From positions 11,139-75,138 of the forward strand of contig JAUSCZ010000042.1 in the NCBI GenBank assembly GCA_030674475.1: a DNA stretch of 64,000 bases. Reading direction: 5' to 3'. Below are positions 17,877 to 55,365 of this stretch, piece by piece (the first letter of the stretch is position 1; the number at the start of each line of letters is the position of its first letter). The notes under the pieces are model-generated. The model saw only the letters and a program-made list of their open reading frames with translations, did no database searches and was not told the DNA's origin. The DNA comes from Candidatus Omnitrophota bacterium. Its GTDB lineage: Bacteria; Omnitrophota; Gorgyraeia; Gygaellales; UBA12090. The position numbers and the translations under genes are program-made.

Positions 17877-19127
17877 ATGTCAAGGATAGCCATAGTTGAG
17901 GGGATAAGGACGCCTTTTGTTAAGGCCTGGACGGATTTTGGGGATATTCCGGCCCAGGAATTGGGGCGGATAGCGGTTAGAGAGTTGTTGGAGAGGACCA
18001 GTTTAGAGCCGAAGTTAGTGGATGAGGTAATCTTCGGTTCAGTAGCCAATCCTCCGGAGGCGGCTAATATCGCTCGGGTGATTTCCCTGCTTGCGGGGAT
18101 ACCGAAAGAAAAACGGGCTTATACCGTTTCCCGTAACTGCGCCTCGGGTTTTGAGGCGGTTACCAGCGCGGTGGAAAAGATTTTGACCGGGATGGATGAG
18201 GTGGTGATTGCCGGCGGGGCGGAGTCAATGTCCAATATCCCGATGTTTTATCCTCCCCAAACCGCCAAGCTATTCTTGAAACTGGCTAAAGCCAGGAATC
18301 CTTTAGAAAGAATTTCTCTATTCTGGGAATTGCTTAAACCCAGTCGTCTGCTAAAGCCGGTGATTGGCCTGCAATTAGGCCTGACTGACCCGGTCTGCGG
18401 CCTGAATATGGGCCAGACTGCCGAGATACTGGCTAAGGAATACGGGATAACCCGCAAAGAGCAGGATGAGTTCGCCTTAGTCAGCCATAATCGGGCGCTG
18501 AGCGCCAGGGAAAGGCTGAAAGAGGAGATTGTCCCGGTTTTTGTCCCTCCGAAATACGAAAAGACAGTTACCGATGATAACGGGGTGAGGGAGAAGATTA
18601 CTTTAGAAGATTTAGCCAAACTTAAACCTTATTTTGACCGCTATTCGGGAACCGTAACCGTAGGCAATGCCTGTCAGGTTACTGACGGGGCCTGCGCTTT
18701 GTTACTGATGAAGGAAGAAAAGGCCAAAGAATTGGGTTTTACGCCTTTAGGATTCATCCGCTCCTATGCCTATTGTGGCGTTGAGCCCAGCAAAATGGGC
18801 ATCGGCCCGGCCTTTGCCGTCCCGGAAGTCTTAAAGAAAGCCAGCCTGAAATTAAGCGATATAGAGTTATTAGAGATCAACGAGGCCTTTGCCGCTCAGG
18901 TAATTGCCTGCGAGAGGCATTTGGAGGCCGCTAATATAGGAAAGCTCAATCGCGAGATACTTAATGTCAACGGGGGAGCCATTGCCCTGGGCCACCCGGT
19001 AGGGGTTACCGGCAGCCGCTTGATTCTGACTCTGCTTAAGGAAATGCAGCGCCGGAACCAGCATTTAGGCCTGGCCTCGCTCTGCGTAGGCGGCGGTCAA
19101 GGCGCGGCAGTGATTGTGGAGCGTTAA
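17877..19127 (+). CDS. Acetyl-CoA C-acyltransferase (thiolase)
   Basis: Active-site NCASGFEAV. C-terminal GLASLCVGGGQGAAVIVE thiolase signature. Confidence 0.9.
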   Translation: MSRIAIVEGIRTPFVKAWTDFGDIPAQELGRIAVRELLERTSLEPKLVDEVIFGSVANPPEAANIARVISLLAGIPKEKRAYTVSRNCASGFEAVTSAVEKILTGMDEVVIAGGAESMSNIPMFYPPQTAKLFLKLAKARNPLERISLFWELLKPSRLLKPVIGLQLGLTDPVCGLNMGQTAEILAKEYGITRKEQDEFALVSHNRALSARERLKEEIVPVFVPPKYEKTVTDDNGVREKITLEDLAKLKPYFDRYSGTVTVGNACQVTDGACALLLMKEEKAKELGFTPLGFIRSYAYCGVEPSKMGIGPAFAVPEVLKKASLKLSDIELLEINEAFAAQVIACERHLEAANIGKLNREILNVNGGAIALGHPVGVTGSRLILTLLKEMQRRNQHLGLASLCVGGGQGAAVIVER

Positions 19128-19160
19128 TGTATATGTTATAATTTAAGCGGAGGTGAGATT

Positions 19161-19379
19161 ATGAAAGTAGCGGATATTCCTAAGATTTCTCGTTTAAGTA
19201 CGGCAGAGAAAATTTTATTCGTTGAGGATGTGTGGGATTCTATCGCTTCTAAAGAGCGTATTCCTATGCCTGAATCGCACAAGGCTGAACTGGACCGGCG
19301 ATCAGCAAAATATCAAAACCATGGCGGACGATTGCTCTCTTTAAAAGAACTGCAAGCGCGGATAGAAAAAAGAAAATAA
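19161..19379 (+). CDS. Putative addiction-module antitoxin (TIGR02574-like), partner of the ParE/RelE gene downstream
   Basis: 72 aa. MKVADIPKISRLSTAEKILFVEDVWDSIA... is typical of the small antitoxins found upstream of ParE/RelE genes. Its stop is 1 nt before the toxin start. Confidence 0.7.
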   Translation: MKVADIPKISRLSTAEKILFVEDVWDSIASKERIPMPESHKAELDRRSAKYQNHGGRLLSLKELQARIEKRK

Positions 19380-19380
19380 T

Positions 19381-19692
19381 ATGCGATATTTGTTGTCATT
19401 TTTGCCCGAAGTTGAAGAAGACACTGTTTCCGCGTATATTTGGTATGAAGAAAAATCCAAAGGTTTGGGCGAGGAATTCTTAAGAGCCTTTTATGCCAGT
19501 GCCGCGGAAATAGCCCGAACCCCCAATCTTTATCCCAAGATCTATAAAAACTTTCATCGTAAGCTACTTAAGCGATTCCCTTATGTTGTCTATTTTCTTA
19601 TTGAGAGTGGATCCGTTATAGTTTACGGCTTGTTCCATTGCGCCCGGAATCCGTATTCAATACAAGGAAAGATTGATGATAGGCCTTCTTAA
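19381..19692 (+). CDS. parE: ParE/RelE-family toxin
   Basis: 103 aa. N-terminal RYLLSF.PEVEEDTVSAYIWY, and overall ParE-like size and pattern. Confidence 0.7.
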   Translation: MRYLLSFLPEVEEDTVSAYIWYEEKSKGLGEEFLRAFYASAAEIARTPNLYPKIYKNFHRKLLKRFPYVVYFLIESGSVIVYGLFHCARNPYSIQGKIDDRPS

Positions 19693-19725
19693 TTACGCAA
19701 AAGAGATAAGGATGAGAGTTGACCT

Positions 19726-19792
19726 ATAGCTAGTCGTGGTGATGATCGTAACTAAGGGGTTAATTTCAAGTTTCAAGGCCTGACCCCTAAAG
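19726..19792. repeat. Approximately 67 bp repeat ending in the hairpin ggggttaatttcaagtttcaaggcctgacccc (copy 1)
   Basis: It recurs almost identically at 20652-20720. The terminal ~30 nt is the reverse complement of the fadJ start region (21879-21907) and of the fragment at 20547-20575. Confidence 0.8.
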
Positions 19793-20135
19793 TTCCCTGC
19801 TTTAATTAACTCTCAAACCCAACAAGCAATTGCACAAGAACAGGCTAATCAAGCAACCTTAAATAGAATACACGATATTTATCAAAGAAGCGCTGAAAGA
19901 CAACAGCAAAATATACAAACCTTTCAACAGAATATTGCTGATTGGAACGCTAACTGGTAAAAGAGCCATAATCAAGTAGGAACAAGATGGAATCCTATGC
20001 ACGTTACTGTCAATGATAAGAAAGAATGATAAGTTTAAAGGTGGAAAAGCAGATGTTTCTTATAAAATATGCATATGAATAAAAATAAACGGTTGTCATG
20101 CCTGTTTTTAAATTTTAGACGAAAGAGGCAAGGAT

Positions 20136-20450
20136 ATGGGAATGTCAGATAAAACACACGAAATTATAAATAAATTATATGTATTTGTAGATACCGGTAA
20201 TAAAAAACTGATAGAAAAGTATACATTAGAAGAAATGATCCAGGTGAAGTGTCACTATAAACCATATAACTCGAAGTTGCCAGACTTAACTCCAATCATA
20301 GATAATAGAATAAACGAACTTAAAGAGATTAATCTCGCAAAAAGGAAGAAAAGAGAAAAATGGTTAGATAGATTATTTGGTTTTATTTCTGGTATGGCAG
20401 TTACTTTAGCGAGCGTTTATTTAAAAGGTTGTTTGAAATTAGAAAAGTAA
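20136..20450 (+). CDS. Hypothetical small protein with a C-terminal TM helix, inside the low-GC insertion
   Basis: 104 aa, lysine-rich, with a C-terminal hydrophobic segment FGFISGMAVTLASVYL. The local sequence is AT-rich. I recognise no domain. A 21-codon hydrophobic mini-ORF (MNKKQLIVVWVVGGVMARRRK) follows at 20452-20517. Confidence 0.35.
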   Translation: MGMSDKTHEIINKLYVFVDTGNKKLIEKYTLEEMIQVKCHYKPYNSKLPDLTPIIDNRINELKEINLAKRKKREKWLDRLFGFISGMAVTLASVYLKGCLKLEK

Positions 20451-20546
20451 AATGAATAAGAAGCAATTAATAGTCGTTTGGGTTGTGGGTGGAGTTATGG
20501 CAAGGAGGCGGAAATGAGAAAAGTATTTGCTTTATTCAGAGAAAAA

Positions 20547-20575
20547 GGGGTCAGGCCTTGAAAGTTGAATTTATC
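20547..20575 (+). repeat. Diverged duplicate of the fadJ 5' end / RBS region
   Basis: ggggtcaggccttgaaagttgaatttatc matches ggggtcaggccttgaaacttgaatttatc at 21879-21907. Confidence 0.75.
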
Positions 20576-20651
20576 TTAACAATTCTGTTGTTTAGGATAC
20601 AATACAGTTATGGTCTGTCCTATAGATTGCATAAGAAGGGTGCTTTTATCA

Positions 20652-20720
20652 TATAACTAGTCGTGGTGATAATCGTAACTGAGGGGTTAATTTCAAGTTT
20701 CAAGGCCTGACCCCTAAAAG
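20652..20720. repeat. Copy 2 of the ~67 bp hairpin repeat
   Basis: Near-identical to 19726-19792. Confidence 0.8.
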
Positions 20721-20986
20721 CGTTTGCCGCAGGCGGATGCGCCTACGGCGCAAGAAAGTAGTTGGTAGTTAAAGTTTTTCGCTGTAATCAAAAAAAGCGC
20801 GAGGGCATAAATGAAAAAGAGGATGTCTCTGCAAGATAAGGCCTATGCGGCATTAAAAAAAGCGGTGCGGCAGGTTGTTCAACAGCATAAAAAAAACAGG
20901 TCGTCCTCTCGCGGTGTGGGAAAATGGCAGGGTAGTCCGCATTTCTCCTTACACGGTTAAATAATAGGGACAGCGGCCATTTTAAG

Positions 20987-21045
20987 AAGATGAAGCGCCG
21001 GAATCTGCACTTAGGCCTGGCCTCGCTGTGCGTAGGCGGCGGACG
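20987..21045 (+). pseudogene. Remnant of a thiolase 3' end, diverged from the resident thiolase
   Basis: It translates to KKMKRRNLHLGLASLCVGGGRN, versus KEMQRRNQHLGLASLCVGGGQG at the true thiolase C-terminus (19044-19098). The two differ at several nucleotides, so this is not an exact tandem copy. Confidence 0.6.
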
Positions 21046-21101
21046 GAACTTGACAAAACAATTATTTTGTGATACACTTTGTAATACAGGAGGCGATAAC
21101 A

Positions 21102-21389
21102 ATGTCCATTACTAAATCACACAACACAAAAGAGAAAATTATTACTGCTAGATGCGATACCCATGTTAAAGAAATTCTGTATCTTCTTAGTCAGTCAGAG
21201 CGCCTTTCTATGTCTGATGTTATAGCTAAAAGCATTCTCGAATATCATAAAAGACACTTTCCTGATCAGTCTTTTTCTGAAGAAGAGCAAGAACTATTTG
21301 GCAGACATAGCAGCTCCAAAGGTGATTTATCTATAAACAGGAAACGGTACTTAAAGGAGATGTTGAGTGGAAAACATGGCCGTAATTGA
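21102..21389 (+). CDS. vapB: Ribbon-helix-helix (CopG-like) antitoxin, VapB-type
   Basis: The ATG at 21102 is preceded by AGGAGG. ARCDTHVKEILYLLSQSERLSMSDVIAKSI is an RHH motif. It overlaps the PIN toxin gene by 23 nt. The six-frame ORF starts earlier, at 21069. Confidence 0.6.
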   Translation: MSITKSHNTKEKIITARCDTHVKEILYLLSQSERLSMSDVIAKSILEYHKRHFPDQSFSEEEQELFGRHSSSKGDLSINRKRYLKEMLSGKHGRN

Positions 21390-21798
21390 TGCCGGGCCTT
21401 TAATTGCCTTATTTGATAAATCCGATACGTATCACCAGAAGGTCAAGCATAGGCTTGAGGAATATCGTAAAGATGTCCAGGGAAGACTTATTACCACTTG
21501 GCCTATAATAACAGAAGTTACTTACATTTTGGAAGCACACGTTCATCTCGAAGCCCAGTTAGACTTCTTAAAATGGATTATTCTGGGTGGATTAGAAATG
21601 TTTGATCTAACCAGGGAGCATCTATCCAGGATAATCGAATTACAAAAGAAATATTCTAACCTTCCTATGGACTTTGCCGATGCTACTTTGCTTATTGGAG
21701 CTGAGGCCTTAGATACAACTAAAGTCTTTTCTCTTGATAAAGACTTCTCAATTTATCGCATGCTGGGCAAAAGACACATGGAGAATTTAATGAAATGA
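21367..21798 (+). CDS. vapC: PIN-domain toxin, VapC family
   Basis: AVIDAGPLIALFD, DFADATLL and FSLDKDF carry the conserved acidic residues of a PIN nuclease. Confidence 0.85.
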   Translation: MENMAVIDAGPLIALFDKSDTYHQKVKHRLEEYRKDVQGRLITTWPIITEVTYILEAHVHLEAQLDFLKWIILGGLEMFDLTREHLSRIIELQKKYSNLPMDFADATLLIGAEALDTTKVFSLDKDFSIYRMLGKRHMENLMK

Positions 21799-21890
21799 GA
21801 AAAAGATTTATAAATTGGTCATCAGTCATCCCTATCTACCCTGCCTACCGGCAGGCAGGCTGTTAAGGTTAATAAGAAAGGGGTCAGGCC

Positions 21891-29471: not shown

Positions 29472-29510
29472 ATTTGGGGTAAATTTTTCTTTACCGTATA
29501 GGAAATTCTA

Positions 29511-30020: not shown

Positions 30021-30209
30021 TTCAGCTTTAAGATTCTGTTGGTAATCTACTAGAGGAATACACTCTTTTTCTTGGCCTGTCTGATTTTGTTAATGGTGGA
30101 TTAGGCAGGCCAAGAAAAAGAATAGTAAGGGTGGTTCTTGTGAATAATAAGAGGCACCCTTGCTTATTAAGGGTTATATTTTTTAAAAAAGAAGGGAGGT
30201 GAATAAGAA

Positions 30210-30578
30210 ATGAAGAAGGCATTTTTGGTATTGGCGGCATTATGTTTTGTTTCTTCCTTAGCCTTTGCTCAAGGGTCTAGCGGTAGTGAAACCGTGATGA
30301 TCAAGGGAGACATTATTGACAATATGTGTTTAGACGCTCATAAGACTGAGGATTTAGCTGCTTTTATAAAGACTCATTCTAAACAGTGCGCTATCACTCC
30401 TGCCTGCGAGGCCAGCGGATACGCGATCGTTGCTGAGGGAATAGTGAATAAATTTGATCAAGACAGTAACGCGAAGATTGCTGAATTCCTGAAAAAAGAA
30501 GACAGTAAACTTCAGGTAGCGGTAACCGCTCAAAAGAGCGGCGAAGTATTAAGTTTAGTTTCGGTAGAGAATCAATAG
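30210..30578 (+). CDS. Secreted hypothetical protein
   Basis: Signal peptide MKKAFLVLAALCFVSSLAFAQG. Good RBS gggaggtg. Followed by a clean terminator. Confidence 0.45.
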   Translation: MKKAFLVLAALCFVSSLAFAQGSSGSETVMIKGDIIDNMCLDAHKTEDLAAFIKTHSKQCAITPACEASGYAIVAEGIVNKFDQDSNAKIAEFLKKEDSKLQVAVTAQKSGEVLSLVSVENQ

Positions 30579-30593
30579 TAGCTATTGTTAAAA

Positions 30594-30632
30594 TAAAACG
30601 GAGGGCGGCTTTCGCGAGCCGCCCTCTTAATT
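30594..30632 (+). terminator. Rho-independent terminator
   Basis: gagggcggctttcgcgagccgccctc stem-loop followed by ttaattc. Confidence 0.6.
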
Positions 30633-30701
30633 CAGCCGTGGACGACGGATTTTCGGTAAATTTTATAATTAAATATTTTCACAAAAAATTTTATTAAAAT
30701 A

Positions 30702-30729
30702 CTTGACAAATAATTTATCTATTGTATAA
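30702..30729 (+). promoter_or_regulatory. Near-consensus sigma70 promoter upstream of the rRNA operon
   Basis: TTGACA at 30702-30707, a 16 nt spacer, then TATAAT at 30724-30729, with an AT-rich UP-like tract upstream. Confidence 0.45.
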
Positions 30730-30999
30730 TAAAAAATTACCAAAAGGAGACAGGAAAACCTGGAGCCAAATAATTTGGTAAAAATAGTGGAAGAAAAAAC
30801 CACAGCAGTTGACAATACCGGATAGATATTGAAGGACGAATAAGCGCCTTTTTAAAGATAGATAAAAGCGCTCATAGATTTGTCTGAGCGCTTTTTTTGT
30901 TTCTTTAGAGAGCTAAAAAGATAAATTTCAATCGTTCTTTGAGAATTAAATAGCCAAGCCCACTCGTCCCGGCATTATGCCGGGCAAAGAGCTTTATTT

Positions 31000-32578
<1,579 letters not shown>

Positions 32579-32799
32579 AAAATTTTTTGGCTGTGCCAAA
32601 GATATTTTAGAATAATGTTTTAGGTTGATAGTCTAAAGCTATTAACTATTTTTAATCAGACTCGCGATAATAGGCTTTATCGTTTGGAGCTTGGCTATTT
32701 TTTATTTAACGCGAATAGACGCGGAAACTACGGGTTCGTGATTCGTGATTAGTGATTCGTGATTCAAGAACGAACCACGATACACGAACAACGAAATGC

Positions 32800-32876
32800 G
32801 GGCCCATAGCTCAGTTGGTTAGAGCACAGCCCTGATAAGACTGGGGTCAGTGGTTCGAATCCACTTGGGCCCACCA
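32800..32876 (+). tRNA. tRNA-Ile (anticodon GAT)
   Basis: gggcccatagctcagttggttagagcacagccctgataagactggggtcagtggttcgaatccacttgggcccacca. Cloverleaf is intact and CCA is encoded. Confidence 0.9.
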
Positions 32877-32989
32877 AATTTTTGCTGTGCGAAAATTTGG
32901 TAGAGCAATTGAAAATTGAACAATAGAACAAATAGAACATAATAGCTTCAGCTGCGTTCTATTTTCTATTGCTCTATTGCTCAAGACTC

Positions 32990-33062
32990 GGGGCAGTAGC
33001 TCAGCTGGGAGAGCGTCTGATTTGCATTCAGAAGGTCGGGAGTTCGAGCCTCCTCTGCTCCA
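32990..33062 (+). tRNA. tRNA-Ala (anticodon TGC)
   Basis: ggggcagtagctcagctgggagagcgtctgatttgcattcagaaggtcgggagttcgagcctcctctgctcca. The G3:U70 identity pair is present. CCA is not encoded. Confidence 0.9.
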
Positions 33063-33303
33063 CTTAAATTTTCCTTGTCGGAAAATTTAAGTGGATACTG
33101 AGCAAGCGTAAGCGGCACGACAGAGTGCCTGAGCTGAGTCGAAGTATCTTCCCCTATAAAATATAATACTAATAGTAAAACATACATTTTCTTCGCGGCC
33201 AGTCCCGCGATTGGATGTTCTTTGACAACTTAATATAATCAAGTAACAAGGAGTCTTTTCGAAAGAGAAGATTCGGGTAACAATTTGCCAAATAGAATTA
33301 AAA

Positions 33304-36288
<2,985 letters not shown>

Positions 36289-36439
36289 TATAACGTATAG
36301 CGTGTAGCGCGCAGCGTATAGGAAACTATCCGCTCAGCGCTGCACGCTAAACGCTAAAACATGATATAGGTTTAGTCTGTTTTATAAATGTTGTAAGTGT
36401 TATTCTGCTTGATTATACAAAGTTGTCTTATGAAAATTC

Positions 36440-36556
36440 GGAGCATTCTTACCGGAGGGGCCACACCCGTTCCCATTCCGAACACGGTAGTTAAGACCTC
36501 CAGGGCCGATGGTACTTTAGTAGTAATGCTATGGGAGAGTAGGACGATGCTCCGGC
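36440..36556 (+). rRNA. rrf: 5S ribosomal RNA
   Basis: ggagcat...ccgaacacggtagttaag...atgctcc terminal helix. About 117 nt. Confidence 0.85.
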
Positions 36557-36562
36557 TTGAAT

Positions 36563-36600
36563 AAAAAAACCCCCCGATATGTTTTCGGGGGGTTTTTTTA
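36563..36600 (+). terminator. Rho-independent terminator of the rRNA operon
   Basis: aaaaaaccccccgatatgttttcggggggttttttta. Confidence 0.8.
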
Positions 36601-36647
36601 TAGATAACAGATAAAACAAGTAACTGCTAAATACTTTAGCTCTTTTT

Positions 36648-37070
36648 ATGTCACCCAAGACCAAATTTATCCGGCTTAAGAAAATATTTGAAATTCTCCA
36701 TGGGCCTAAAGGCTGTCTTTGGGACAAAAAGCAGACCCATAAGACGCTTATCTCTTATCTAAAAGAAGAGACTAAGGAATTGGCGCACGCTTTAAGAAGC
36801 GGGAATTGCTGTCATATAAAAGAAGAACTGGGGGATGTGCTTTTACAGGTGATGCTTCACGCTCAGATTGCTTCTAAGGGGGGAAGCTTTGACATAGAGG
36901 ATGTGCTTGACGGATTAATCAAGAAGATAAAACGGCGTCATCCGCATGTATTTGGAAAAATAAAGGTTAAATCGGTGCGGGAAATTAAGGCTAATTGGGA
37001 AAAAATAAAGATGCGGGAGAAAAAGGACCAAACAAAAAACCCCGACTTCCTCGGGGCTTTTCGCAGGTGA
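36648..37070 (+). CDS. mazG: MazG-family nucleoside triphosphate pyrophosphohydrolase
   Basis: EELGDVLLQVMLHA and RRHPHVFG motifs. The stop lies within the terminator hairpin ccccgacttcctcggggctttt. Confidence 0.85.
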   Translation: MSPKTKFIRLKKIFEILHGPKGCLWDKKQTHKTLISYLKEETKELAHALRSGNCCHIKEELGDVLLQVMLHAQIASKGGSFDIEDVLDGLIKKIKRRHPHVFGKIKVKSVREIKANWEKIKMREKKDQTKNPDFLGAFRR

Positions 37071-37149
37071 TAGGCCTAATTGCTTTCGCTATTATCCGCC
37101 TCCTGTTTATCACTTATCTCTAATTTAAGTTTACCACATTTTTACAAAA

Positions 37150-37270
37150 TGTCAAGTAAAATCTGCCTCTGGCGCTTAGATTTTACTTGATTCTGAGCTC
37201 TGCGAAGAATCTTAAAAGAGAATCTGCCTCTTGAGCGCTAAAGATTTTACTTGCCTGCCTGCCGGCAGGC
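37150..37270. repeat. Composite repeat block: inverted copy of the 60 bp hairpin repeat, a half-copy, and the cctgcctgccggcaggcagg palindrome
   Basis: See 29511-29580 and 24068-24172. Confidence 0.85.
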
Positions 37271-37421
37271 AGGATTCTAAAGCTATGTGAAGAGATCCTT
37301 CGCAACCAGAAGAAATAGAGGATTGCTCAGGATTAATTCGCTTAGTAGAACTTCCGCAAGATTAGAGAATGAGGGCGAATTAAATCTTATCAAATATAAT
37401 TTTCTATGCTATCAAGGGTAG

Positions 37422-37910
37422 ATGATAAAAATAAATAATAAGCTCATTAAACAGGTGGCGCGCAAGGCTAAAATAGCTCCCCGTAAAAGGATTAATTATA
37501 ATTTTCATCAAGATTATAATGAGGGCATCCAGCGTATTTTAAACGCGGCAGATACTCAAACCTATGTCCGTCCTCATAAGCACGAGGCTCCGGATAAGAC
37601 CGAAATATTCATTATTCTCAAGGGAAGAGTTTTGTGCGTGGAGTTTGATGATGCCGGAAAGATTACAGACCACCTTTTTTTAGACGCCGTAAAGGGTAAT
37701 TTCGGAGTTGAGATTAAGCCCGGCACCTGGCATTCTTTTATCAGCTTAAAAAATGGTTCCTGCGTGTATGAGATAAAGGAAGGGCCGTATGATTCTAAAG
37801 TGGATAAGCAATTCGCCCCCTGGTCGCCCAGCGAAGATGACCTAGAGGCCGGCCGGCGTTTTAACCGGAAGATTGTTACTCAGTTAAAGAGCAAAACTGC
37901 TTCGCGGTAA
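37422..37910 (+). CDS. WbuC-family cupin-fold metalloprotein
   Basis: YVRPHKHEAPDKTEIFIILKGR...GTWHSF...FAPWSPSE matches the WbuC cupin pattern. Confidence 0.75.
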   Translation: MIKINNKLIKQVARKAKIAPRKRINYNFHQDYNEGIQRILNAADTQTYVRPHKHEAPDKTEIFIILKGRVLCVEFDDAGKITDHLFLDAVKGNFGVEIKPGTWHSFISLKNGSCVYEIKEGPYDSKVDKQFAPWSPSEDDLEAGRRFNRKIVTQLKSKTASR

Positions 37911-38028
37911 AAATATTGTTTACAACTTATTGAAAACGGTATATAATTTATTTTAATAATCGGGAAAAACACAAAATAAATGTTTTGTCATTTGGGTTTT
38001 GTCATTTGAATTTAACATAGGAGGATTG

Positions 38029-38508
38029 ATGAAAAGAAATTTTTTTCGCGGAACTTTCATTGTCGTAGGCATATTTTTAATTTCCGGATGCAGCCAACAG
38101 GCCCAGAAGCCGGCTGATACCGTTATTCCGTCTCAAGAAGGAGCGCTTTCCAATACTACAACCGGTTCTCTTTCAGCTCAGCCGAAGGATTTGGTAATTG
38201 AAACTCAGCCGATTCAGGTTCCGGCGGCACCCTTGGGCGGACTTGAGGTTAAGCCGCAGGTTGAATACGCGGGCGCTGAGGAGTTGGGTGACCTGTTTGT
38301 TAAGCCGACTGAAAAAGAAATTCAACAGGCCCTGAAGAACGCCGGCCTTTATGATGGGGAAGTAGATGGTAAAATCGGCCCCAGAAGTAAAAGGGCCATT
38401 GAGGAATTTCAGGCCCAGAATAATTTAAAGGCTGACGGTAAAGTCGGTTCTAAAACCTGGCAGAAGCTGAAAGAGCATCTTAACGCGGAGCCCATGGCCG
38501 CGGAGTAA
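38029..38508 (+). CDS. Lipoprotein with a C-terminal peptidoglycan-binding (PG_binding_1) domain
   Basis: Lipobox FLISGC. C-terminal LYDGEVDGKIGPRSKRAIEEFQAQNNLKADGKVGSKTWQKL. AGGAGG RBS. A tandem ttttgtcatttg direct repeat lies upstream at 37982-38010. The six-frame ORF starts at 37999. Confidence 0.7.
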   Translation: MKRNFFRGTFIVVGIFLISGCSQQAQKPADTVIPSQEGALSNTTTGSLSAQPKDLVIETQPIQVPAAPLGGLEVKPQVEYAGAEELGDLFVKPTEKEIQQALKNAGLYDGEVDGKIGPRSKRAIEEFQAQNNLKADGKVGSKTWQKLKEHLNAEPMAAE

Positions 38509-38631
38509 GTCAAATTTTTCAGGTAAGGTAATTTAAGAAGGCCGTGTTTAAAAGGAGAAAGTATCCTTTAAGGCGCGGCCTTTGTTTTGCGCTGGACAGC
38601 CTGAGCTGGCTAATGTATAATCCATTACAGA

Positions 38632-40773
38632 ATGCGTAAAGACATTTTAGGGGATATTCGTTATTTAAAAGGCGTGGGTCTTAAGCGGGCGGCGCTTTTT
38701 AATAAGTTGGAAATCAGCTTAATTGAAGATCTGCTCTATTATTTCCCTCGCCGTTATGAAGATAGGACTGTAATTACCGATATCGGCAGTCTCGCCCCGG
38801 GAGAATATCAGACAGTGAGGGCAAGAATTATTAGAGTCAAAGAGCGCCCTGTTTTTAGGCAGAGAGGTTTTAGGATTTTTGAGGCTGTGGCGGAGGATTC
38901 AACCGGGAGGCTGTCCTGTGTCTGGTTTAATCAGCCGTATTTAAAAAACTATATTATGATTGATAGGGAGGTTATGCTTTTTGGCAAGGTCGGCCTTTAC
39001 GGGAACAGCCCGCAAATGCAGAATCCGGAATATGAAGTTATGAGTTCGCGCTCATCAGACGGGGCAGAACCAAATGGTCAATCGAACGACAGTCTTAATT
39101 CCGCCAGGATAATTCCGGTTTATTCCCTGATCGAGGGTTTAAGCCAAAGGATGTTTAGGCGCCTTATAAAAACCTGCCTGGATGAGTATCTGCCCGGAAT
39201 TATAGATATCCTGCCTTATGACATCAGACAACGTAATCATTTGCTCAACATAGCTTCGGCAGTCCTGAATATGCATTTTCCTCAGGATGCCCTTCGCCAG
39301 GAAGAGGCCTATAAGAGGATTATCTTTGAAGAGTGTTTCTTGATGCAGTTGATTTTTGGCCTTAAACGTTATAAGGCGGATAAAATAATAGGAACCGCCC
39401 ACAGGCTGAATGAGGATTTTTTAAAGAGCTTTGAGGAGGGTCTGTCTTTTAAATTAACTGATTCTCAAGATAAGTCAATAGCCCAGATAAAGAAAGATAT
39501 GTCTTCCCCTAATCCGATGTACCGGCTTCTGGAGGGAGATGTCGGCTGTGGTAAAACCATAGTGGCTTTATATGGCTGTATGATTTCAGTATCCAACGGC
39601 GCGCAGGCGGCCTTTATGGCTCCCACTGAAATTCTGGCCCAACAGCACTTTCGGGTTATCAGCCATCAGCTTTCGGCTCTCTCCGCCGCAGGCGGATGCG
39701 CCTACGGCGCAAGCCATCGGCTAAAGGCAGGGCTCCTGACCAGCAGTGTGCCATTAAAGGAAAAACAAAAAATATATAATGAAATAAAAAATGGGACGAT
39801 AGATATACTTGTGGGAACCCACGCCTTGCTTCAGGAGGAGGTGGAATTTAAAGATTTAAGTTTGGTGGTGATAGATGAACAGCATAAGTTCGGAGTGTAT
39901 CAGAGAATGGGCCTGCTGACCAAGGGTCTTAATCCGGATTGTTTGATTATGACCGCGACCCCGATACCGCGCACCCTGGCTTTGACTATTTATTCTGATT
40001 TAGACATTTCCACTATTGATGAGCTTCCTTCCGGGAGAATCCCGGTTAAAACTTATCTGGCCGGCGAAGATAGGCGGGGGTGGGTGTATGATTTTATCCG
40101 CCAGAGCCTTCAATCCGGCCGTCAGGCTTATATCGTATACCCAATAATTGATGAGTCAGAAAGATTGGAGCTGAAATCAGCCAAGGCGATGCATAAAGAC
40201 CTGAAGAAAAATATTTTTAGCGATTTTAAGGTAGGGCTTATCCACGGGAAGATGAAACAGAAAGAGCGGGATAAGGTTATGGCCTCTTTTAGAAAGGGCG
40301 AGATTGATCTTTTGGTTTCTACCGTGGTGATTGAGGTGGGCATAGACGTGGCTAACGCCTCGGTGATGGTCATCGAGCATGCCGAGAGATTCGGCTTATC
40401 CCAATTGCATCAACTGCGCGGCAGGATAGGAAGGGGAACACACCAGTCGCATTGTATTTTGATTAGTGATGCCGCCGGCGATGAATCCGGACAAAGGTTA
40501 AAGGTAATGGTTGAAGAGTCTGACGGTTTTAAGATTGCCGAACGGGATTTGGAAATCCGGGGGCCGGGTGAGTTTTTTGGGGCGCGCCAGCACGGCATAC
40601 CGGAACTCAGGGTTAATCCTCTGGAGAATATGGAGTTGCTGCAGGCGGCTAAAAAAGAAGCCGATGCCTTAATCAAAAAGGATCCTCGGCTTGGCCTTAG
40701 GCAGAATACGGGATTAGCTGATATCTTACAGAGAAGATTCCCGGATTATGAAAAAATAGCCGAAGCCGGATAG
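38632..40773 (+). CDS. recG: ATP-dependent DNA helicase RecG, with a short in-frame repeat-derived insertion
   Basis: Wedge/OB N-terminus, helicase motifs GDVGCGKT and DEQHKFGV, and a TRG region. Between motifs I and II, the 29-mer gccgcaggcggatgcgcctacggcgcaag (39685-39713) encodes AAGGCAYGAS and recurs intergenically at 20726-20754. Confidence 0.9.
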   Translation: MRKDILGDIRYLKGVGLKRAALFNKLEISLIEDLLYYFPRRYEDRTVITDIGSLAPGEYQTVRARIIRVKERPVFRQRGFRIFEAVAEDSTGRLSCVWFNQPYLKNYIMIDREVMLFGKVGLYGNSPQMQNPEYEVMSSRSSDGAEPNGQSNDSLNSARIIPVYSLIEGLSQRMFRRLIKTCLDEYLPGIIDILPYDIRQRNHLLNIASAVLNMHFPQDALRQEEAYKRIIFEECFLMQLIFGLKRYKADKIIGTAHRLNEDFLKSFEEGLSFKLTDSQDKSIAQIKKDMSSPNPMYRLLEGDVGCGKTIVALYGCMISVSNGAQAAFMAPTEILAQQHFRVISHQLSALSAAGGCAYGASHRLKAGLLTSSVPLKEKQKIYNEIKNGTIDILVGTHALLQEEVEFKDLSLVVIDEQHKFGVYQRMGLLTKGLNPDCLIMTATPIPRTLALTIYSDLDISTIDELPSGRIPVKTYLAGEDRRGWVYDFIRQSLQSGRQAYIVYPIIDESERLELKSAKAMHKDLKKNIFSDFKVGLIHGKMKQKERDKVMASFRKGEIDLLVSTVVIEVGIDVANASVMVIEHAERFGLSQLHQLRGRIGRGTHQSHCILISDAAGDESGQRLKVMVEESDGFKIAERDLEIRGPGEFFGARQHGIPELRVNPLENMELLQAAKKEADALIKKDPRLGLRQNTGLADILQRRFPDYEKIAEAG

Positions 40774-40779
40774 GTGGAT

Positions 40780-41496
40780 ATGAATATCTTAGCCATAGAC
40801 ACATCTTCAAAATACTTTTATTTGGCCATAGCCGAAGACGATAAAATAAAGGTCAATATTTGTCCGCCCTCAGGAAGGGAATTGAGCCGGATGATAATTC
40901 CCCTCATTGAGCGAGCCTTGAAAAAAGCAAGATTATCTTTAAAAGATATTGATTGTTTTGCCTGTGGTTTAGGGCCGGGGTCTTTTACCGGCCTGAGGGT
41001 AGGGTTGGCCGTGATTAAAGGGTTTGCTTTTTCTTTAAATAAGCCGGTGGTGGGGATAATCAGCTTAGATTGTTTAGCCGGCTCTCAGTCGGATTTTCCG
41101 GGTTATGTCTGTCCGATTGTGGATGCCCGGCGTTCTTTGGTATATTCGGCAATTTACCGCGCGAAAAATGGAATCCTGAAGCGCGAGGGCCGGTATTTGT
41201 TGGTGCCCTTAAAAGAGTTATTTGCTAAGCTTAAAGGCCGGGCTAATATTATCTTTCTGGGTGACGGACTTTCTCTCTACCGCGACGACATTAAGAAGGA
41301 ATTTGGCTTAAGGGCTCATTTTGCCGATGAGGGTTTTTGGTATCCCAGGCCGGAAAATCTTTTAAAACTGGCCAGGGAAAAGATAAGGAATAGAGAGATC
41401 GCTGATTTAGATAAGCTCGTCCCATTTTATATGTATCCCAAGGAATGTCAAATAAAGGAAAAAGTGAAAAGTGAAAAGGGAGAAGTTAGAGGTTAG
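40780..41496 (+). CDS. tsaB: tRNA threonylcarbamoyladenosine biosynthesis protein TsaB (YeaZ)
   Basis: MNILAIDTSS... is an inactive Kae1/YgjD paralog pattern. The GTG at 40774 is an alternative start. Confidence 0.8.
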   Translation: MNILAIDTSSKYFYLAIAEDDKIKVNICPPSGRELSRMIIPLIERALKKARLSLKDIDCFACGLGPGSFTGLRVGLAVIKGFAFSLNKPVVGIISLDCLAGSQSDFPGYVCPIVDARRSLVYSAIYRAKNGILKREGRYLLVPLKELFAKLKGRANIIFLGDGLSLYRDDIKKEFGLRAHFADEGFWYPRPENLLKLAREKIRNREIADLDKLVPFYMYPKECQIKEKVKSEKGEVRG

Positions 41497-41504
41497 GGAA
41501 AGAT

Positions 41505-42617
41505 ATGAAACATTATCGTCCGACCTGGGCGGAAATAAATTTAAGAAATCTGGATTATAATTTCAGATTAGTTAAGAAGCTGGTGGGTCCGAAGGTAAAG
41601 ATCTTGGTTCCGGTTAAGGCGGATGCCTACGGCCACGGGATAATCGCTATTTCTAAAAGATTGGAAAAATTAGGCGCGGATTATCTGGGGGTGGCCAGTA
41701 TTGATGAGGGGATAATCCTGCGCCGTAACGGAATTAAAAGGCCTATTCTTATACTTAGCCCGATTTTCCCTGACGGGGTCCAGGCGTTATTAAAGCATAA
41801 TTTAATCCCCTCTGTGTGCACTTGGGAGCTGGCCTTAAAGCTGAACCGGCAGGCCGCCAGAAGAAATCAGAAGGTAGTTATTCATATCAAAGTAGATACC
41901 GGGATGCAGCGCATCGGCATAGCCCATCACAGCGCCCGCAAGTTTATCCACCAGGTCTCGGGGCTTAAGAATATTCTCATTGAAGGGATATTTACCCATT
42001 TTCCCTGCGCGGACAATAAACCGGTCTTTACCCGTGAGCAGATAAGGATGTTTGAGGCCTTGATTCGGCAAGTAGAGAAAGAAGGAATTCATATTCCCTT
42101 AAAGCACGCCTCTAACAGTTTAGGAGTGCTGGATTATCCTGCTGGGCATTTTAATATGGTCAGGCCCGGCTTGATGATTTACGGCTTGTATCCTAAGGAG
42201 CGGTTAAAGAGTAAACTAAAGCCGGTTTTAAGCCTCAAGACCAGGGTTTCTTATCTTAAGGCGGTGGCTAAGGGTTCAGGTATAAGCTATGGCCACACCT
42301 ATATCGCCAAAAGAAAAATGAAAATCGCCACCCTGCCCATAGGTTATGGTGATGGCTATCCCCGCAGCCTTTCTAATCAGGCGCATTGTCTTATCGGCGG
42401 GGAAAAAGCAAAGATTGTAGGAAGAATCTGTATGGATCAGCTTATGGTGGATGTAACCAGGATAAAAAAAGTAAGGACAGGAGATCCAGCGGTGCTGGTG
42501 GGATTTCAAAAGACTAAGAGTGTTAGTGTGGAGGATTTAGCAAAACTTGCCGGAACCATTTCTTATGAGATTGTCTGTGGTCTGGGAAATCGCCTGCCCC
42601 GGATATATATCGGTTAA
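41505..42617 (+). CDS. alr: Alanine racemase
   Basis: PLP-lysine motif VKADAYGHG. Overall Alr length. C-terminal beta domain present. Confidence 0.9.
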   Translation: MKHYRPTWAEINLRNLDYNFRLVKKLVGPKVKILVPVKADAYGHGIIAISKRLEKLGADYLGVASIDEGIILRRNGIKRPILILSPIFPDGVQALLKHNLIPSVCTWELALKLNRQAARRNQKVVIHIKVDTGMQRIGIAHHSARKFIHQVSGLKNILIEGIFTHFPCADNKPVFTREQIRMFEALIRQVEKEGIHIPLKHASNSLGVLDYPAGHFNMVRPGLMIYGLYPKERLKSKLKPVLSLKTRVSYLKAVAKGSGISYGHTYIAKRKMKIATLPIGYGDGYPRSLSNQAHCLIGGEKAKIVGRICMDQLMVDVTRIKKVRTGDPAVLVGFQKTKSVSVEDLAKLAGTISYEIVCGLGNRLPRIYIG

Positions 42618-43705
42618 GCGGCCTCTTGAATCATTTTTAACGCGGCGATAGAAAATCCTATCGGCGCGATCCAGGCGGATAGAAAGGGAAAGAGCATCCC
42701 GGATTTGCCCAGGGCCAGGCTTATTCCGGTAAGCACGTAGTATAAGAAGCTGATTCCGACGCAGATGCCGAAGGAGCTGAAGATGTTGGCGCGTTTACGA
42801 ATTGTAAAAGAAAACGGAATCCCGATTAATATCAGTATCAGGCTGGAGAATGACGAGGCGTATCTTTGGTGGAGCTCAACCAGCAGATTTCTCACCGCGG
42901 GCATTGCCCCGCTTTTCCTGAGCTTCCAGATATAATCTTCAAGCTGGGCTATAGTCATCAACTCCTGATGTTTTTTCTGCTGAAGAAAATCCTGGGGGGT
43001 TTCGGTGATATCCGTAATCTCTTCCTGGCGGTATATGGCGTCATCTGATACTTGGCCCTGGGCGTCAAAATTGAGCCGGTTAAATTCATAGAAAAACCAG
43101 AGTTTGTCTTTATAATCGCCTCGCCTGGCGGTTATCTTAGCAATAAGATTCTGCTGATTATCATGCTCAAGTATGGTTATGCCCTCCATGGTGTTGGTTT
43201 TACTGTCAAAAGAGTTTATGAAGAACAGCCGGTTTTCCAGTCCGTAAAAAGTAAGGTTATGAATCACTTCTTTAGGGCCGCTATTTTTTTCTCCATCCAG
43301 GGTCTTCTTCATTCTATCGGCGTTTAAACGCGCCGCGGGAATTATTTTTTCATTCGTCGAAAATATCAGGATACTCAAGGATAATCCGATGGCTATGCTG
43401 GGGGCGCATATCTGCCAGAGGCTTAAGCCTGATGAGCGCATAGCAACGAGTTCGTTGTCGCGGTTTAGTTTGCCAAAGACGTATATGGTTGAAAGTAAAA
43501 GAGCTATTGGCGCGGTCTGAGTAGCAATGATGGGTAGGCTGGCCAGGTAATAGTGATACATAAAAGTGAGCCCCACATGGTGTTTCAGGATGTCATCCAG
43601 CCGGCTTAAGGCGTCGGAGATTATATACAGGAAGATAAATATAAAGAGGCATCCCAGAAACGCGCTCACCAGGGGTTTTATGATATAACGGTCTAAGATA
43701 CGCAT
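42614..43705 (-). CDS. lptG: LPS export ABC permease LptG (YjgP/YjgQ family)
   Basis: Six-TM permease with a periplasmic beta-jellyroll insert. Second gene of an lptF-lptG pair. Confidence 0.75.
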   Translation of the reverse strand: MRILDRYIIKPLVSAFLGCLFIFIFLYIISDALSRLDDILKHHVGLTFMYHYYLASLPIIATQTAPIALLLSTIYVFGKLNRDNELVAMRSSGLSLWQICAPSIAIGLSLSILIFSTNEKIIPAARLNADRMKKTLDGEKNSGPKEVIHNLTFYGLENRLFFINSFDSKTNTMEGITILEHDNQQNLIAKITARRGDYKDKLWFFYEFNRLNFDAQGQVSDDAIYRQEEITDITETPQDFLQQKKHQELMTIAQLEDYIWKLRKSGAMPAVRNLLVELHQRYASSFSSLILILIGIPFSFTIRKRANIFSSFGICVGISFLYYVLTGISLALGKSGMLFPFLSAWIAPIGFSIAALKMIQEAA

Positions 43706-44811
43706 AATTTAAGCATAAGAAAACTGCCGATAGTTCCAAATATGATATTAGGCATCCACATACTGATAACCGGGGATAGGTATCCTTGCAGGCTTAAGGA
43801 TTCAAAGGCGATTAAGAGAAGGTAATAGGCTATCACAATGAGAAAGGCCAGGCCGAAATTCATGGTTTTCTCCCGGCGGTGGGTGATTACCGCCAGCGGC
43901 GCGGCAACGAGCATGAAGATAAAGCTGGAGAAAGCCAGGGCAAGTTTCTGGTGCAGATGGGTGACCAATGGCGCCGTATCAATAGATTGGGCGGAGTACT
44001 CGTGTATTTGTTTTTTTAACTCTTTGATAGTCATATCTTTAGGTTTCTTCTCCACTTCTCTTTTATCGTCAGGGTTGTCCAGGGTGAGGGTTATGTAGTA
44101 GGTCTTGAAATTAAGCTTAAAAAACTCACCCGGATTATTCGGGTCAGGTTCATCCGAGGTTCCGTTGGTAAGCTTAAGTTTGACGGTCTTTTTCTCAGGG
44201 ATGGAAACGAACTCGCCTCTTTTGGCTACGATGGTCCGGGTGGGCTTATCTTTTCCCTGCGGTTCGTAGATGCGCACATTATTGAGGATGTTGCGTTCTT
44301 TGGTCTGTTTGTTGCGCTCAATAGAATAGACAAACAAGACATAATTTTGAAAAGAATCAATAAATGTCCCCGGCTCCAGGGCCGCGGTAGGGTTTTTCAG
44401 GCCGATTTCCACCAGGGTTTTACGGCTGGCATAGTGGGCTTTGGGAATAATCTTGTCGTTCATGATTATCAGGAATAGGCTTAAAACCAGCCCTGAGACC
44501 AAGAGTGGAAAAATAACCTTGAAGATATTTATCCCGCTTGAGCGGATAGCCAGGATTTCATTATCCGAGGAAAGCCGTCCCAGGGAAAGCAGGGTGGCGC
44601 TGAGGACCGCGATAGGAATGGTGTAGGTTAATAAATAGGGTATCAGAAAAAGAAAGAGTTTGGCTACGCTGAAGAAATTTACCCCTTTGGTGATAATCAG
44701 TTCAATGAGCTGGATTAGATTTCCCAACAGCATAACAAAGATCAGCACCGCCAAAGAAAATATAAACGGCAGGCTGAATTCTTTTAAAAGATAATCGCGA
44801 AGTATTTTCAT
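43693..44811 (-). CDS. lptF: LPS export ABC permease LptF (YjgP/YjgQ family)
   Basis: Same family. First of the pair. It overlaps comF upstream and lptG downstream. Confidence 0.75.
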   Translation of the reverse strand: MKILRDYLLKEFSLPFIFSLAVLIFVMLLGNLIQLIELIITKGVNFFSVAKLFLFLIPYLLTYTIPIAVLSATLLSLGRLSSDNEILAIRSSGINIFKVIFPLLVSGLVLSLFLIIMNDKIIPKAHYASRKTLVEIGLKNPTAALEPGTFIDSFQNYVLFVYSIERNKQTKERNILNNVRIYEPQGKDKPTRTIVAKRGEFVSIPEKKTVKLKLTNGTSDEPDPNNPGEFFKLNFKTYYITLTLDNPDDKREVEKKPKDMTIKELKKQIHEYSAQSIDTAPLVTHLHQKLALAFSSFIFMLVAAPLAVITHRREKTMNFGLAFLIVIAYYLLLIAFESLSLQGYLSPVISMWMPNIIFGTIGSFLMLKLCVS

Positions 44812-45572
44812 TAGCTTGCCAGCGTAAACACATACACCGCGCTTGCGCGCGCGTTTTTGAGGATCCTTGAGGCCTCGGAAGCGGTGGCCCCGGTGGTTAA
44901 GACATCGTCCAGCAGCAATATGGTTTTTCCTTTTATGGTATCGGGATTTGTTATTCTAAAAGCGCCGGAAATATTCTTCCAGCGGCTCTCTTTATCCAGG
45001 TCAGCCTGGGCCGGAGTATTACGGACGCGTTTTAGATTATTGCTGAGCAATTGGATTCCGAAATATCCGGCTATCTCTTTGGCTAAAACTTCCGCCTGGT
45101 TAAATTCCCTTTCCCTGAGCTTGGCCGGGGAAAGGGGTATGGGTATCAGGTAATCGCAGTGATTCAGGGGAAGATGGTAGTGCCGGATGAAATCTATCAT
45201 TAGTTCGGACAACGGTTTCGCGAGAAAAATTTTATTTTTGTATTTAAATTGATGGATAAGTTCTCTAGCGTTTTCCTGGTAAGGACAGACTGTCCAGGCC
45301 CGCTCAAAATAAAATCGGGCATTTAGACATTCTCCGCAGGTATGCTTAGCGGTATCTTCTTGCGCGAGGCCCCTTCCGCATTTCCGGCAAAAAGGAGGGA
45401 GGTGAGGCGAAATCTCCTTAAGGCATTTTAGACAGACCAAATCCTTTTGGTCATTAAGAGGTATTTTCTCCCGGCACAACAGGCAGTGCCGGGGATAGAG
45501 TATCTCTTTTAACGACTTGATCAAGGTGCTGACCATAGAAAATTTGGAAGCTTTCCCTGGTAAATTTAGCAT
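44811..45572 (-). CDS. comF: ComF-family protein (zinc ribbon plus phosphoribosyltransferase domain)
   Basis: N-terminal CxxC...CxxC. C-terminal PRTase motif ILLLDDVLTTGAT. Confidence 0.8.
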   Translation of the reverse strand: MLNLPGKASKFSMVSTLIKSLKEILYPRHCLLCREKIPLNDQKDLVCLKCLKEISPHLPPFCRKCGRGLAQEDTAKHTCGECLNARFYFERAWTVCPYQENARELIHQFKYKNKIFLAKPLSELMIDFIRHYHLPLNHCDYLIPIPLSPAKLREREFNQAEVLAKEIAGYFGIQLLSNNLKRVRNTPAQADLDKESRWKNISGAFRITNPDTIKGKTILLLDDVLTTGATASEASRILKNARASAVYVFTLAS

Positions 45573-54835: not shown

Positions 54836-54915
54836 AAGTAGCTTTGTAGTCAATGAATGAATTTACTCACTCCAAACTTCAAAGAACCAAACTAAATAAT
54901 CGGAGGGATATAAAG

Positions 54916-55365
54916 ATGGATAAGCGCAAAAAAAGAATATTGTTGGTGGATGATGAGCCGGATTTTGTGGAGTTGATAAAAAGCAGATTAGAGGCCAATG
55001 AATACCAGGTGGTAACCGCCAAAAACGGCAAAGAGGCCCTGGATTTGCTTAAATGCCTGACCTGCGATAAGTTTGACGCGATATTGCTGGATATCCTGAT
55101 GCCGGAGATAGATGGGATAGAAACCTTGAAAAGAATACGCCAGCAGGATAAGGAGCTTCCGGTGTTTATGCTGACGGCTTATTCGGACAAAGGGATGTTT
55201 GAGCAGGCCAATAAAGCCGGGGCCTCGGGATATATTGTTAAAACCAGCGACCTTCAGCAGGAAATCAATAATATTAATAATATCCTCAGGCTGGCCCCGA
55301 AGTATCACCCGGCGGAGAAATCCTCCCCTTACCAAGGGGAGGTAGGGAGGGGTAAGGAAAAATAA
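54916..55365 (+). CDS. Response regulator (receiver) with a short repeat-encoded C-terminal tail
   Basis: ATG at 54916 with a GGAGGG RBS. ILLVDDEPD. Phospho-acceptor in ILLDILMPEIDG. The last ~14 codons (SSPYQGEVGRGKEK) are encoded by a copy of the hairpin repeat. The six-frame ORF starts at 54853. Confidence 0.8.
   Translation: MDKRKKRILLVDDEPDFVELIKSRLEANEYQVVTAKNGKEALDLLKCLTCDKFDAILLDILMPEIDGIETLKRIRQQDKELPVFMLTAYSDKGMFEQANKAGASGYIVKTSDLQQEINNINNILRLAPKYHPAEKSSPYQGEVGRGKEK

Follow-up and report, generated by a model that had tools for sequence, protein, structure and literature searches.

A 30-nt hairpin module within the heptanucleotide-repeat linker of an Omnitrophota recG

How does a short palindromic repeat come to lie inside a helicase gene and leave its reading frame intact? 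The question is raised by a 64,000-nt stretch of a Candidatus Omnitrophota genome (contig JAUSCZ010000042.1, positions 11,139 to 75,138; the whole stretch is hereafter the window), in which the 29-mer GCCGCAGGCGGATGCGCCTACGGCGCAAG occurs in two identical copies on the + strand, one inside recG (39685-39713) and one in intergenic DNA (20726-20754). An earlier note, made from the sequence alone, had drawn attention to this pair, and it stands: the match is exact and was equalled in 0 of 100 dinucleotide-preserving shuffles. The similarity of the two sites is confined to the 29 nt, with none beyond, and the window holds no third copy at up to 3 mismatches. The recG insertion is derived, polymorphic and in frame, and the linker that received it is itself built of 7-nt repeats. 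We favour, with a modest degree of confidence, the view that short-patch templated copying placed the element into this array, where it is a tolerated passenger.

The module and its place in RecG

The features on which the argument turns are the following.

38632..40773, + strand: recG open reading frame (ORF), 713 aa, intact and with all helicase motifs (from the ORF list; phmmer against T. maritima RecG 1GM5, E=8e-164)
39685..39713, + strand: the 29-mer as first reported (exact match search)
39682..39711, + strand: the 30-nt module, two tandem mini-hairpins TCCGCC-GCA-GGCGGA and TGCGCC-TAC-GGCGCA, encoding SAAGGCAYGA (from comparison of copies)
20723..20752, + strand: the intergenic module copy, TTTGCC-GCA-GGCGGA and TGCGCC-TAC-GGCGCA (from the sequence)

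The window protein is identical to NCBI MDO8749481.1, which is named RecG. Within the gene, the 29-mer begins on a codon boundary and encodes AAGGCAYGAS, and the insert lies after motif Ia (PTEILAQQH) and ahead of the GLLTSS strand and DEQH (motif II), between helicase motifs as first proposed. In an alignment with T. maritima RecG (1GM5) the segment faces a 12-residue gap; the net gain over the closest orthologs is 7 residues. An AlphaFold2 model of the window RecG, built on 43 sequences, places a helix at residues 333–352, coil at 353–365 and a strand at 366–369, with a predicted local distance difference test score (pLDDT) of 61 at residues 351–360 against a mean of 79. On this model, the module is probably translated as a flexible surface loop of low model confidence, and RecG would stay functional.

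Comparison of all copies retrieved from public collections gives the true unit as 30 nt, composed of two tandem 15-nt mini-hairpins of the general form T-S-CGCC / 3-nt loop / GGCG-S-A. The earlier description of a small, GC-rich, near-palindromic insert in frame is thus correct in kind, with the unit corrected from 29 to 30 nt (39682-39711). The module can also fold as a single hairpin, which in the 29-mer has 10 bp and a 4-nt loop (-17.4 kcal/mol on the + strand, -19.2 on the - strand; z-scores of -3 to -4). This alternative 10-bp hairpin is invariant among the copies and hence uninformative. Across five distinct variants of the module, all 12 pairs proposed for the mini-hairpins stay paired in each: two pairs show compensatory changes in the L026 locus (T:A to C:G and G:C to C:G), G.U pairs are preserved in mini-hairpin 1 of the window's intergenic copy (the TTT variant), and the remaining variation is confined to the loops. 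Pairing conservation at this level was equalled in 21 of 500 shuffles of what are only five variants, a small sample that is no more than suggestive of conserved stems. At 30 nt, and with no stop codon in five of the six frames, the module leaves intact an ORF that receives it. No duplicated bases flank it in any context, so no target-site duplication is seen. It is a member of a loose class of 'TCC...GGA' hairpins, present in low copy across Omnitrophota and neighbouring groundwater bacteria.

The recG linker among orthologs

We aligned the 60 best of 120 listed RecG homologs and extracted the linker from PTEILAxQH to GT for all 120. The indel falls exactly at the segment: where the window has ALS-AAGGCAYGASHRL-KAGLL, the closest homolog (P0001, 95% identity, 706 aa) has ALS-CQGRAC-KAGLL. 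The window allele is the sole carrier in its 90% cluster, whose 14 other alleles, 13 of them full-length and one partial, have the module-less state, ALSCQGRACKAGLL. Among the 120 best listed orthologs, the module is missing from about 117; the exceptions are P0002 (90% identity), which carries the segment with two substitutions and whose cluster mate P0376 is a second carrier, and P0065, with a diverged version.

This comparison largely refutes the idea of an ancestral or selected RecG decapeptide, for which the intergenic match would be a secondary copy; the earlier note itself had named related orthologs sharing the segment as the result that would speak against an insertion, and nearly all of the 120 are without it. 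The peptide is in frame and stop-free in two lineages, and a related version stands at the same alignment position in a distant ortholog. However, the segment is absent from 14 alleles of its own cluster, the module has 87% identity across genes with only ~66% overall, another peptide is read from this DNA in valyl-tRNA synthetase (ValRS, below), and the segment is modelled with low confidence. We regard a role for the peptide as very unlikely.

At the DNA level, a 42-nt tract at 39682-39723 (TCC, the 29-mer core and CCATCGGCTA) stands in place of 21 nt of the module-less L001 locus, with identical flanks. The module therefore brought ~12 nt of flank with it and displaced 21 native nt, a net gain of 21 nt. 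In the 100 nt on each side, the window differs from L001 at 1 and 4 positions and from the module-bearing L003 at 8 and 7, so that the flanks are nearest L001; the 42-nt tract resembles that of L003, from which it departs by 2 substitutions. Such a mosaic fits short-patch transfer between alleles better than vertical descent.

The DNA into which the module was set is a tandem array, here in two parts:

39658..39681, + strand: left part of the array, ATCAGCC ATCAGCT TTCGGCT CTC, encoding ISHQLSAL (from the sequence; ortholog arrays lie at the same position)
39712..39722, + strand: right part of the array, AGCC ATCGGCT (from a three-way DNA alignment and flank mismatch counts)

The module splits a heptamer unit at the CTC^AGCC junction. 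With 39682-39711 removed, Tandem Repeats Finder calls a 7-nt array of 4.4 copies, ATCAGCC ATCAGCT TTCGGCT CTCAGCC ATC. The DNA of 11 further orthologous recG loci, picked partly for long linkers, extends this picture: the linker past motif Ia again consists of in-frame heptanucleotide repeats, with a unit sequence that depends on the lineage. It is a perfect (AGCTATC)4.4 in L023, giving ISYQLSAISYQ, and a near-perfect (GTCAGGT)5 in L024 (4.7 units by array call); the units are (AGCTGTC)n in L026, (CAGTTCA)n in L027 and (GTTCATG)n in L025. 'TC' does not recur in every unit, a rule that fails for some of the arrays. Three 7-nt units make 7 codons, and the protein linkers bear this period: self-identity is 14.8% at offset 7, as against ~5% at most other offsets and 9.7% at offset 3; at least 3 offset-7 matches occur in 31 of 114 orthologs; and linker lengths group at 38, 45 and 52 aa, in steps of 7. 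Some lineages have an 8-residue period instead, from octamer units. Uninterrupted tandem arrays whose unit is not a multiple of 3 thus lie inside the ORF in L023 and L024, whereas that of the window is degenerate and split by the module. Among the assembled orthologs, only in-frame 7-aa steps were seen, with no length polymorphism of the array and no frameshifted allele of recG.

At least five different hairpins occupy this linker across Omnitrophota lineages. Three of them are clean in-frame inserts with intact heptamer units on both sides, of 21 nt in L025 (CCTGCCTGCCGGCAGGCAGGG, between (GTTCATG)n units), 30 nt in L026 and 42 nt in L027 (two 21-nt TCCGCCAC-N5-GTGGCGGA hairpins). The L026 insert, in an ortholog of 52% protein identity, is a relative of the module (26 of 30 nt identical) at the same protein position. 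L020 carries CCTGTCCGGCAGGCAGG, a variant of the L025 hairpin, and L021, L022 and L028 have further distinct hairpins at the site. The L025 type is also intergenic three times in the window:

21840..21859, + strand: hairpin CCTGCCTACCGGCAGGCAGG, family D7, also at 37254-37273 and 52583-52602; its counterpart is in frame in other Omnitrophota recG genes

Because hairpins recur here in several orthologs, the recG linker is a hot spot and the window insertion is one instance of its use.

Recurrence of this kind could also mean that the linker is a conserved 'structure slot', a selected nucleic-acid element acting as an RNA structure that paces translation or as a binding site for an RNase or another protein. 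A hairpin or self-pairing array is present at the site in many lineages, the segment and its flanks fold at -32.7 kcal/mol (z -2.2), the module variants show two compensatory pair changes and kept G.U pairs, and heptamer hairpins also lie in transcribed rRNA spacers. However, most orthologs are hairpin-free at the site, the 14 near-identical alleles included, and the hairpins that do occur share neither sequence nor size; no U-tract accompanies them, nor any other signal that could be recognised, and Rfam has no match. We consider this explanation improbable. An intrinsic terminator inside recG was rejected on the same ground, the absence of a U-run after the hairpin. A search of Rfam 15 with the window and eight other loci returned only rRNA, tRNA and tmRNA, and no known RNA family matched the module at gathering thresholds or at E<=10.

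Copies elsewhere and the probable route into recG

The intergenic window copy starts 8 nt past a 67-nt repeat, next to which the earlier note had correctly placed it, and lies in a variable island:

20652..20718, + strand: 67-nt repeat of family D6, with a second copy at 19725-19791 (96% identity)
19100..21890: variable island between the thiolase gene and fadB, holding the intergenic module copy, a ParE-like ORF (19381-19692) and a PIN toxin (21367-21798)

The island duplicates the ends of both flanking genes (19036-19096 = 20982-21042; 20544-20579 = 21877-21912). In L029, the nearest available relative, the same gap (4700-10000) holds different cargo, a Zeta toxin and NYN, and no empty site for the intergenic copy can be defined there. 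The gap (19036-21912) looks like a recombination hot spot.

Beyond the window, valS of Omnitrophica GWA2_41_15 (L006) contains the identical 29-mer within an in-frame insert of 36 nt, translated in another frame as HPPVPQADAPTAQA. It sits at one of three ValRS sites that are hypervariable among 120 orthologs, empty in some and filled with in-frame heptamer-array hairpins in others. The L006 ValRS itself (3-2057, - strand) has two complete hairpins of this sort (STVHSPKSTEK..MDYGPSTVDY and STVHSPQSTEK..MDYRLWTMD) in addition to the module. Omnitrophica GWF2_43_52 has two intergenic, heptamer-flanked copies: one is 31 nt past tRNA-Glu, and the other has recG-like flanks, sharing the block TC + 30 nt + AGCYWTC with the recG copies. 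The shared block thus extends beyond the module into the heptamer flank. Because the 29-mer is non-coding at 20726 and in GWF2_43_52 and is read in another frame in valS, it is conserved as DNA and not as a peptide; from its sequence contexts, the module appears to be a DNA-level passenger rather than a selected peptide.

Further copies adjoin tRNA genes. A complete WOR-1 genome and a metagenome contig of no assigned taxon have the module after tRNA-Ser or tRNA-Val, inside a partial copy of the tRNA 3' end and exactly between T-loop positions C56 and R57 (GGTTC^module^RAWTC). These loci (L008 6460-6620, L005 1190-1310 and L017 7163-7680) are just downstream of the intact tRNA. L017 has three such units of 81 nt in tandem, with folds resembling acceptor/T-arm minihelices, and other TCC..GGA hairpins interrupt another tRNA-Val fragment at the same T-loop point. 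The 81-nt spacing in L017 does not denote a CRISPR array, as its 'spacers' do not differ from one another and every unit closes with a tRNA-Val 3'-end copy. Nor is the module part of a tRNA gene or a variable arm: ARAGORN and Rfam place intact tRNAs only beside it, and never one that includes it.

The module is rare: by exact pattern, the complete WOR-1 genome (1.67 Mb), GWF2_43_52 and the window have 2 copies each. It is a low-copy module, with 2 per genome where they can be counted, and not a high-copy family. Two of the 16 collection matches (L012 and L013) are probably due to chance, as both are without the flanking TCC/GCA and L013 lies in GC-rich DNA. Viral contigs gave 0 matches, and a phage origin was rejected. 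Across 11 independent contexts, TC directly precedes the module in 8 and AG directly follows it in 7.

We infer that the recG insertion probably arose by copying between arrays. The module would already have been lodged in a heptamer array at another genomic locus, and this array would have served as donor; a locus of the L007 type (AGCTATCAGTTATC-module-AGCTATCAGCC) is a candidate. Such a donor would explain why ~12 nt of its flank came along. Arrival could have been by gene conversion or template switching, followed by spread between close recG alleles by homologous recombination. In recG the decapeptide would be translated as a surface loop, the module having no role of its own there. It is the co-transfer of flank, together with the mosaic alleles, that favours copying between arrays. 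Several observations weigh against this account. No donor locus has been seen in the source genome, and the other window copy (20723-20752), having no left heptamer flanks, cannot be where the flank came from. The copies in valS, beside tRNA genes and at 20726 lie outside matching arrays, so that array homology cannot explain every move, and recombination would have short and imperfect homology (~15–25 nt) to act on. Most copies share the junction ...TC^module^AG..., a preference that would equally suit a target-specific enzyme, and the compensatory and G.U-preserving stem changes hint at structural selection (five variants; 21 of 500 shuffles equal).

Such an enzyme is the core of the strongest competing explanation, that the module is a non-autonomous mobile element moved in trans, e.g. 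by a Y1/HUH transposase of the RAYT or IS200/IS605 kind, which inserts it without duplication after TC and before AG; heptamer arrays and tRNA T-loops would then merely offer the target. The clean, duplication-free insertions with intact units in L025, L026 and L027, the TC and AG junction preferences, and the copies outside matching arrays (L006 valS, window 20726, and the T-loop fragments by tRNA-Ser and tRNA-Val) agree with this, as does the near-identical sequence in organisms named as different phyla (Omnitrophica and WOR-1). On the other side stand the very low copy number (2 each in the WOR-1 genome, GWF2_43_52 and the window), the lack of a transposase linked to the module and the flank sequence that moves along with it in recG. 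A unit of 30 nt is, moreover, shorter than any transposable unit known to us. We consider a mobile element clearly the less probable of the two, although a serious contender.

The least likely proposal is that the two direct copies are site-specific recombination sites around an excisable 19-kb segment. A dyad-symmetric module of ~30 nt does resemble a recombinase core site, the direct copies are 18,959 bp apart, and each of the other genomes examined also has two copies. Excision would, however, take half of recG with it, along with the rRNA operon and housekeeping genes; L001, which is without the recG copy, keeps the synteny over 29372-44984; and no recombinase gene is nearby. We give this proposal almost no credence.

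Repeats in other genes and known systems

The recG linker is one of several coding sites that hold such repeats. In four genomes, fabD carries in-frame 7/8-nt arrays of ~30 nt at the same protein position, with a unit that differs per genome; aconitase has comparable arrays at a site that is empty in the relatives L027 and L028; and two rsmD-like genes share one octamer unit, GTTCTCGC, at the same position.

L023 8239-8273, L024 16140-16169, L025 8540-8570, L028 16696-16722: fabD arrays, perfect or near-perfect
L024 20078-20113, L025 14015-14045: aconitase arrays, unit differing per genome
L025 4568-4594, L026 2744-2778: rsmD-like arrays, one shared octamer unit

In the window, arrays and hairpins lie mostly in short spacers between co-directional genes, those of the rRNA operon included, and the recG copy is the only one deep inside a gene. 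Two others form protein ends: the last residues of TsaB come from (AAAAGTG)3.9 (41460-41486), and a CCTCCCC-TTACCAA-GGGGAGG repeat (55316-55360) supplies the final 16 codons of an ORF for a response regulator (54853..55365, with its receiver domain at 29-136). The suggestion that this genome's repeats occasionally land in coding sequence is borne out by these two tails together with recG, valS, fabD, aconitase and the rsmD-like genes; short repeats settling in essential genes without breaking them are a habit in all Omnitrophota loci examined.

Similar elements are gained and lost between genomes of 95% identity. The recG-tsaB junction (40773/40774) is empty in the window, stop and start abutting, and is filled by a 211-nt element with heptamer arrays in L001 (12121-12331) and by another heptamer-hairpin element in L003 (3445-3573). 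Conversely, ~256 nt of the window (37156-37412, with a CCTGCCTGCCGGCAGGCAGG hairpin) are missing from L001.

We raise tentatively the possibility of an undescribed two-part system, acting at the DNA level in Omnitrophota and some neighbouring groundwater phyla. Its parts would be 7/8-nt arrays (~30 nt, with lineage-specific units) and 15–42-nt 'TCC...GGA' cassettes, written without target duplication into recG, valS, fabD, aconitase and rsmD-like loops, intergenic and rRNA spacers and tRNA T-loop copies, by a dedicated enzyme or by templated repair synthesis. If it exists, these loops would be fast-evolving and possibly phase-variable sites.

Some further observations concern the same loci. 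The window contains a complete rRNA operon (30998-36555; 16S, tRNA-Ile, tRNA-Ala, 23S, 5S), whose spacers hold inverted heptamer/octamer arrays (32735-32795, 32901-32982 and 36289-36358) predicted to form long precursor-RNA hairpins, possibly processing stems. The 23S rRNA gene of L001 has a 710-nt insertion (6891-7601), without counterpart at window 35966/35967, that contains a 173-aa LAGLIDADG-type ORF and weakly matches a group I intron (E=0.003). The loop TTGGCAA is common to window hairpins CCTCCCC-TTGGCAA-GGGGAGG (54793-54837 and others) and WOR-1 hairpins TCCCCC-TTGGCAA-GGGGGA (L008 858-878 and 1788-1806), with different stems, and by its sequence seems to be a second hairpin type shared across phyla. 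In L028 (1-3516), a called gene of >2,400 residues fuses GAPDH, PGK and enolase domains, recalling the 'multi-enzyme giant proteins' reportedly described in a 2026 Omnitrophota preprint; stop-free intergenic repeats could join such giant ORFs. The window also has a tmRNA gene (52024-52457; Rfam 160.9 bits), for which ARAGORN predicts the unusual tag peptide EGYVAPFFVATPRPVFTAPVFAH.

Among described systems, the nearest in outcome are the Rickettsia palindromic elements (RPEs), of about 150 bp and ten families, with dozens of in-frame copies per genome (PMC10969869). The likeness lies in palindromic repeats that are both intergenic and in frame in unrelated housekeeping genes and are tolerated in the protein (PMC10969869), and in-frame insertion into unrelated conserved genes is indeed what we see in recG (window, L003, L026) and valS (L006). 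The module is set apart from RPEs by size and copy number, with 30 nt and ~2 copies per genome, and by its other phylum and its tandem 7-nt array target. The earlier comparison with RPEs and Neisseria Correia elements therefore does not extend to family membership: by size, copy number and the lack of terminal inverted repeats and target-site duplication, the module is in neither, and the resemblance is in outcome only. Terminal inverted repeats or target-site duplications of the miniature inverted-repeat transposable element type (Correia/NEMIS) were not found in any context, and the heptamer units of L025, L026 and L027 are intact on both sides of their inserts.

Repetitive extragenic palindromes (REPs) are short, imperfect and GC-rich; they mostly lie close behind the 3' ends of genes and insert without target duplication (PMC3116915, PMC3337134). 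The module is likewise a short, stable, imperfect palindrome (-17 to -19 kcal/mol, z -3 to -4). REPs form inverted pairs, are tied to a RAYT gene, and are extragenic and number in the hundreds (PMC3116915), whereas the module is low-copy and partly intragenic, with mini-hairpins in tandem and not inverted. No RAYT gene was identified in a Pfam scan that covered 12 window ORFs.

Outside bacteria, the GC clusters of yeast mitochondria and the byps of Magnusiomyces mitochondria are GC-rich hairpins of ~30–50 nt in a GC-poorer genome, some of them coding and polymorphic between strains. All of these are organellar, and byps, over which the ribosome passes without translating them, do not have to keep the reading frame. 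In contrast, the module and the other inserts are all stop-free multiples of 3 (recG 21, 30 and 42 nt; valS 36 nt), which would fit translation, and a ribosomal bypass element was rejected for this reason, in a sample biased by the fact that broken ORFs are not retrievable. Mitochondrial genes of Nematomorpha contain long, perfect coding palindromes with both arms translated (PMC6649704). The in-frame heptamer hairpins of Omnitrophota ValRS (STVHSPQSTEK..MDYRLWTMD) are similar to these in being coding palindromes and differ in their short arms of tandem 7-nt units.

Tandem 7-nt units are otherwise known from the STRR heptanucleotide repeats of cyanobacteria, which lie between genes, and phase-variable (contingency) genes are built on repeat units inside the ORF whose length is not divisible by 3. 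The window array is inside an ORF, degenerate and split by the module. We found no literature on Omnitrophota heptamer arrays or in-frame hairpin cassettes. The arrays in recG, fabD, valS and aconitase might allow frameshift-based switching of housekeeping genes, and the duplication-free insertions and T-loop copies point to a copying mechanism. A protein loop could, on this evidence, be specified by genome-wide repeat dynamics rather than by selection on the peptide, which bears on annotation, on how marker genes are aligned and placed in phylogenies, and on the typing of strains from an uncultured phylum. The module would be a second, independent bacterial case, after Rickettsia, of selfish or neutral palindromic DNA in essential proteins, with far smaller units and with a clear landing pad, an in-frame microsatellite.

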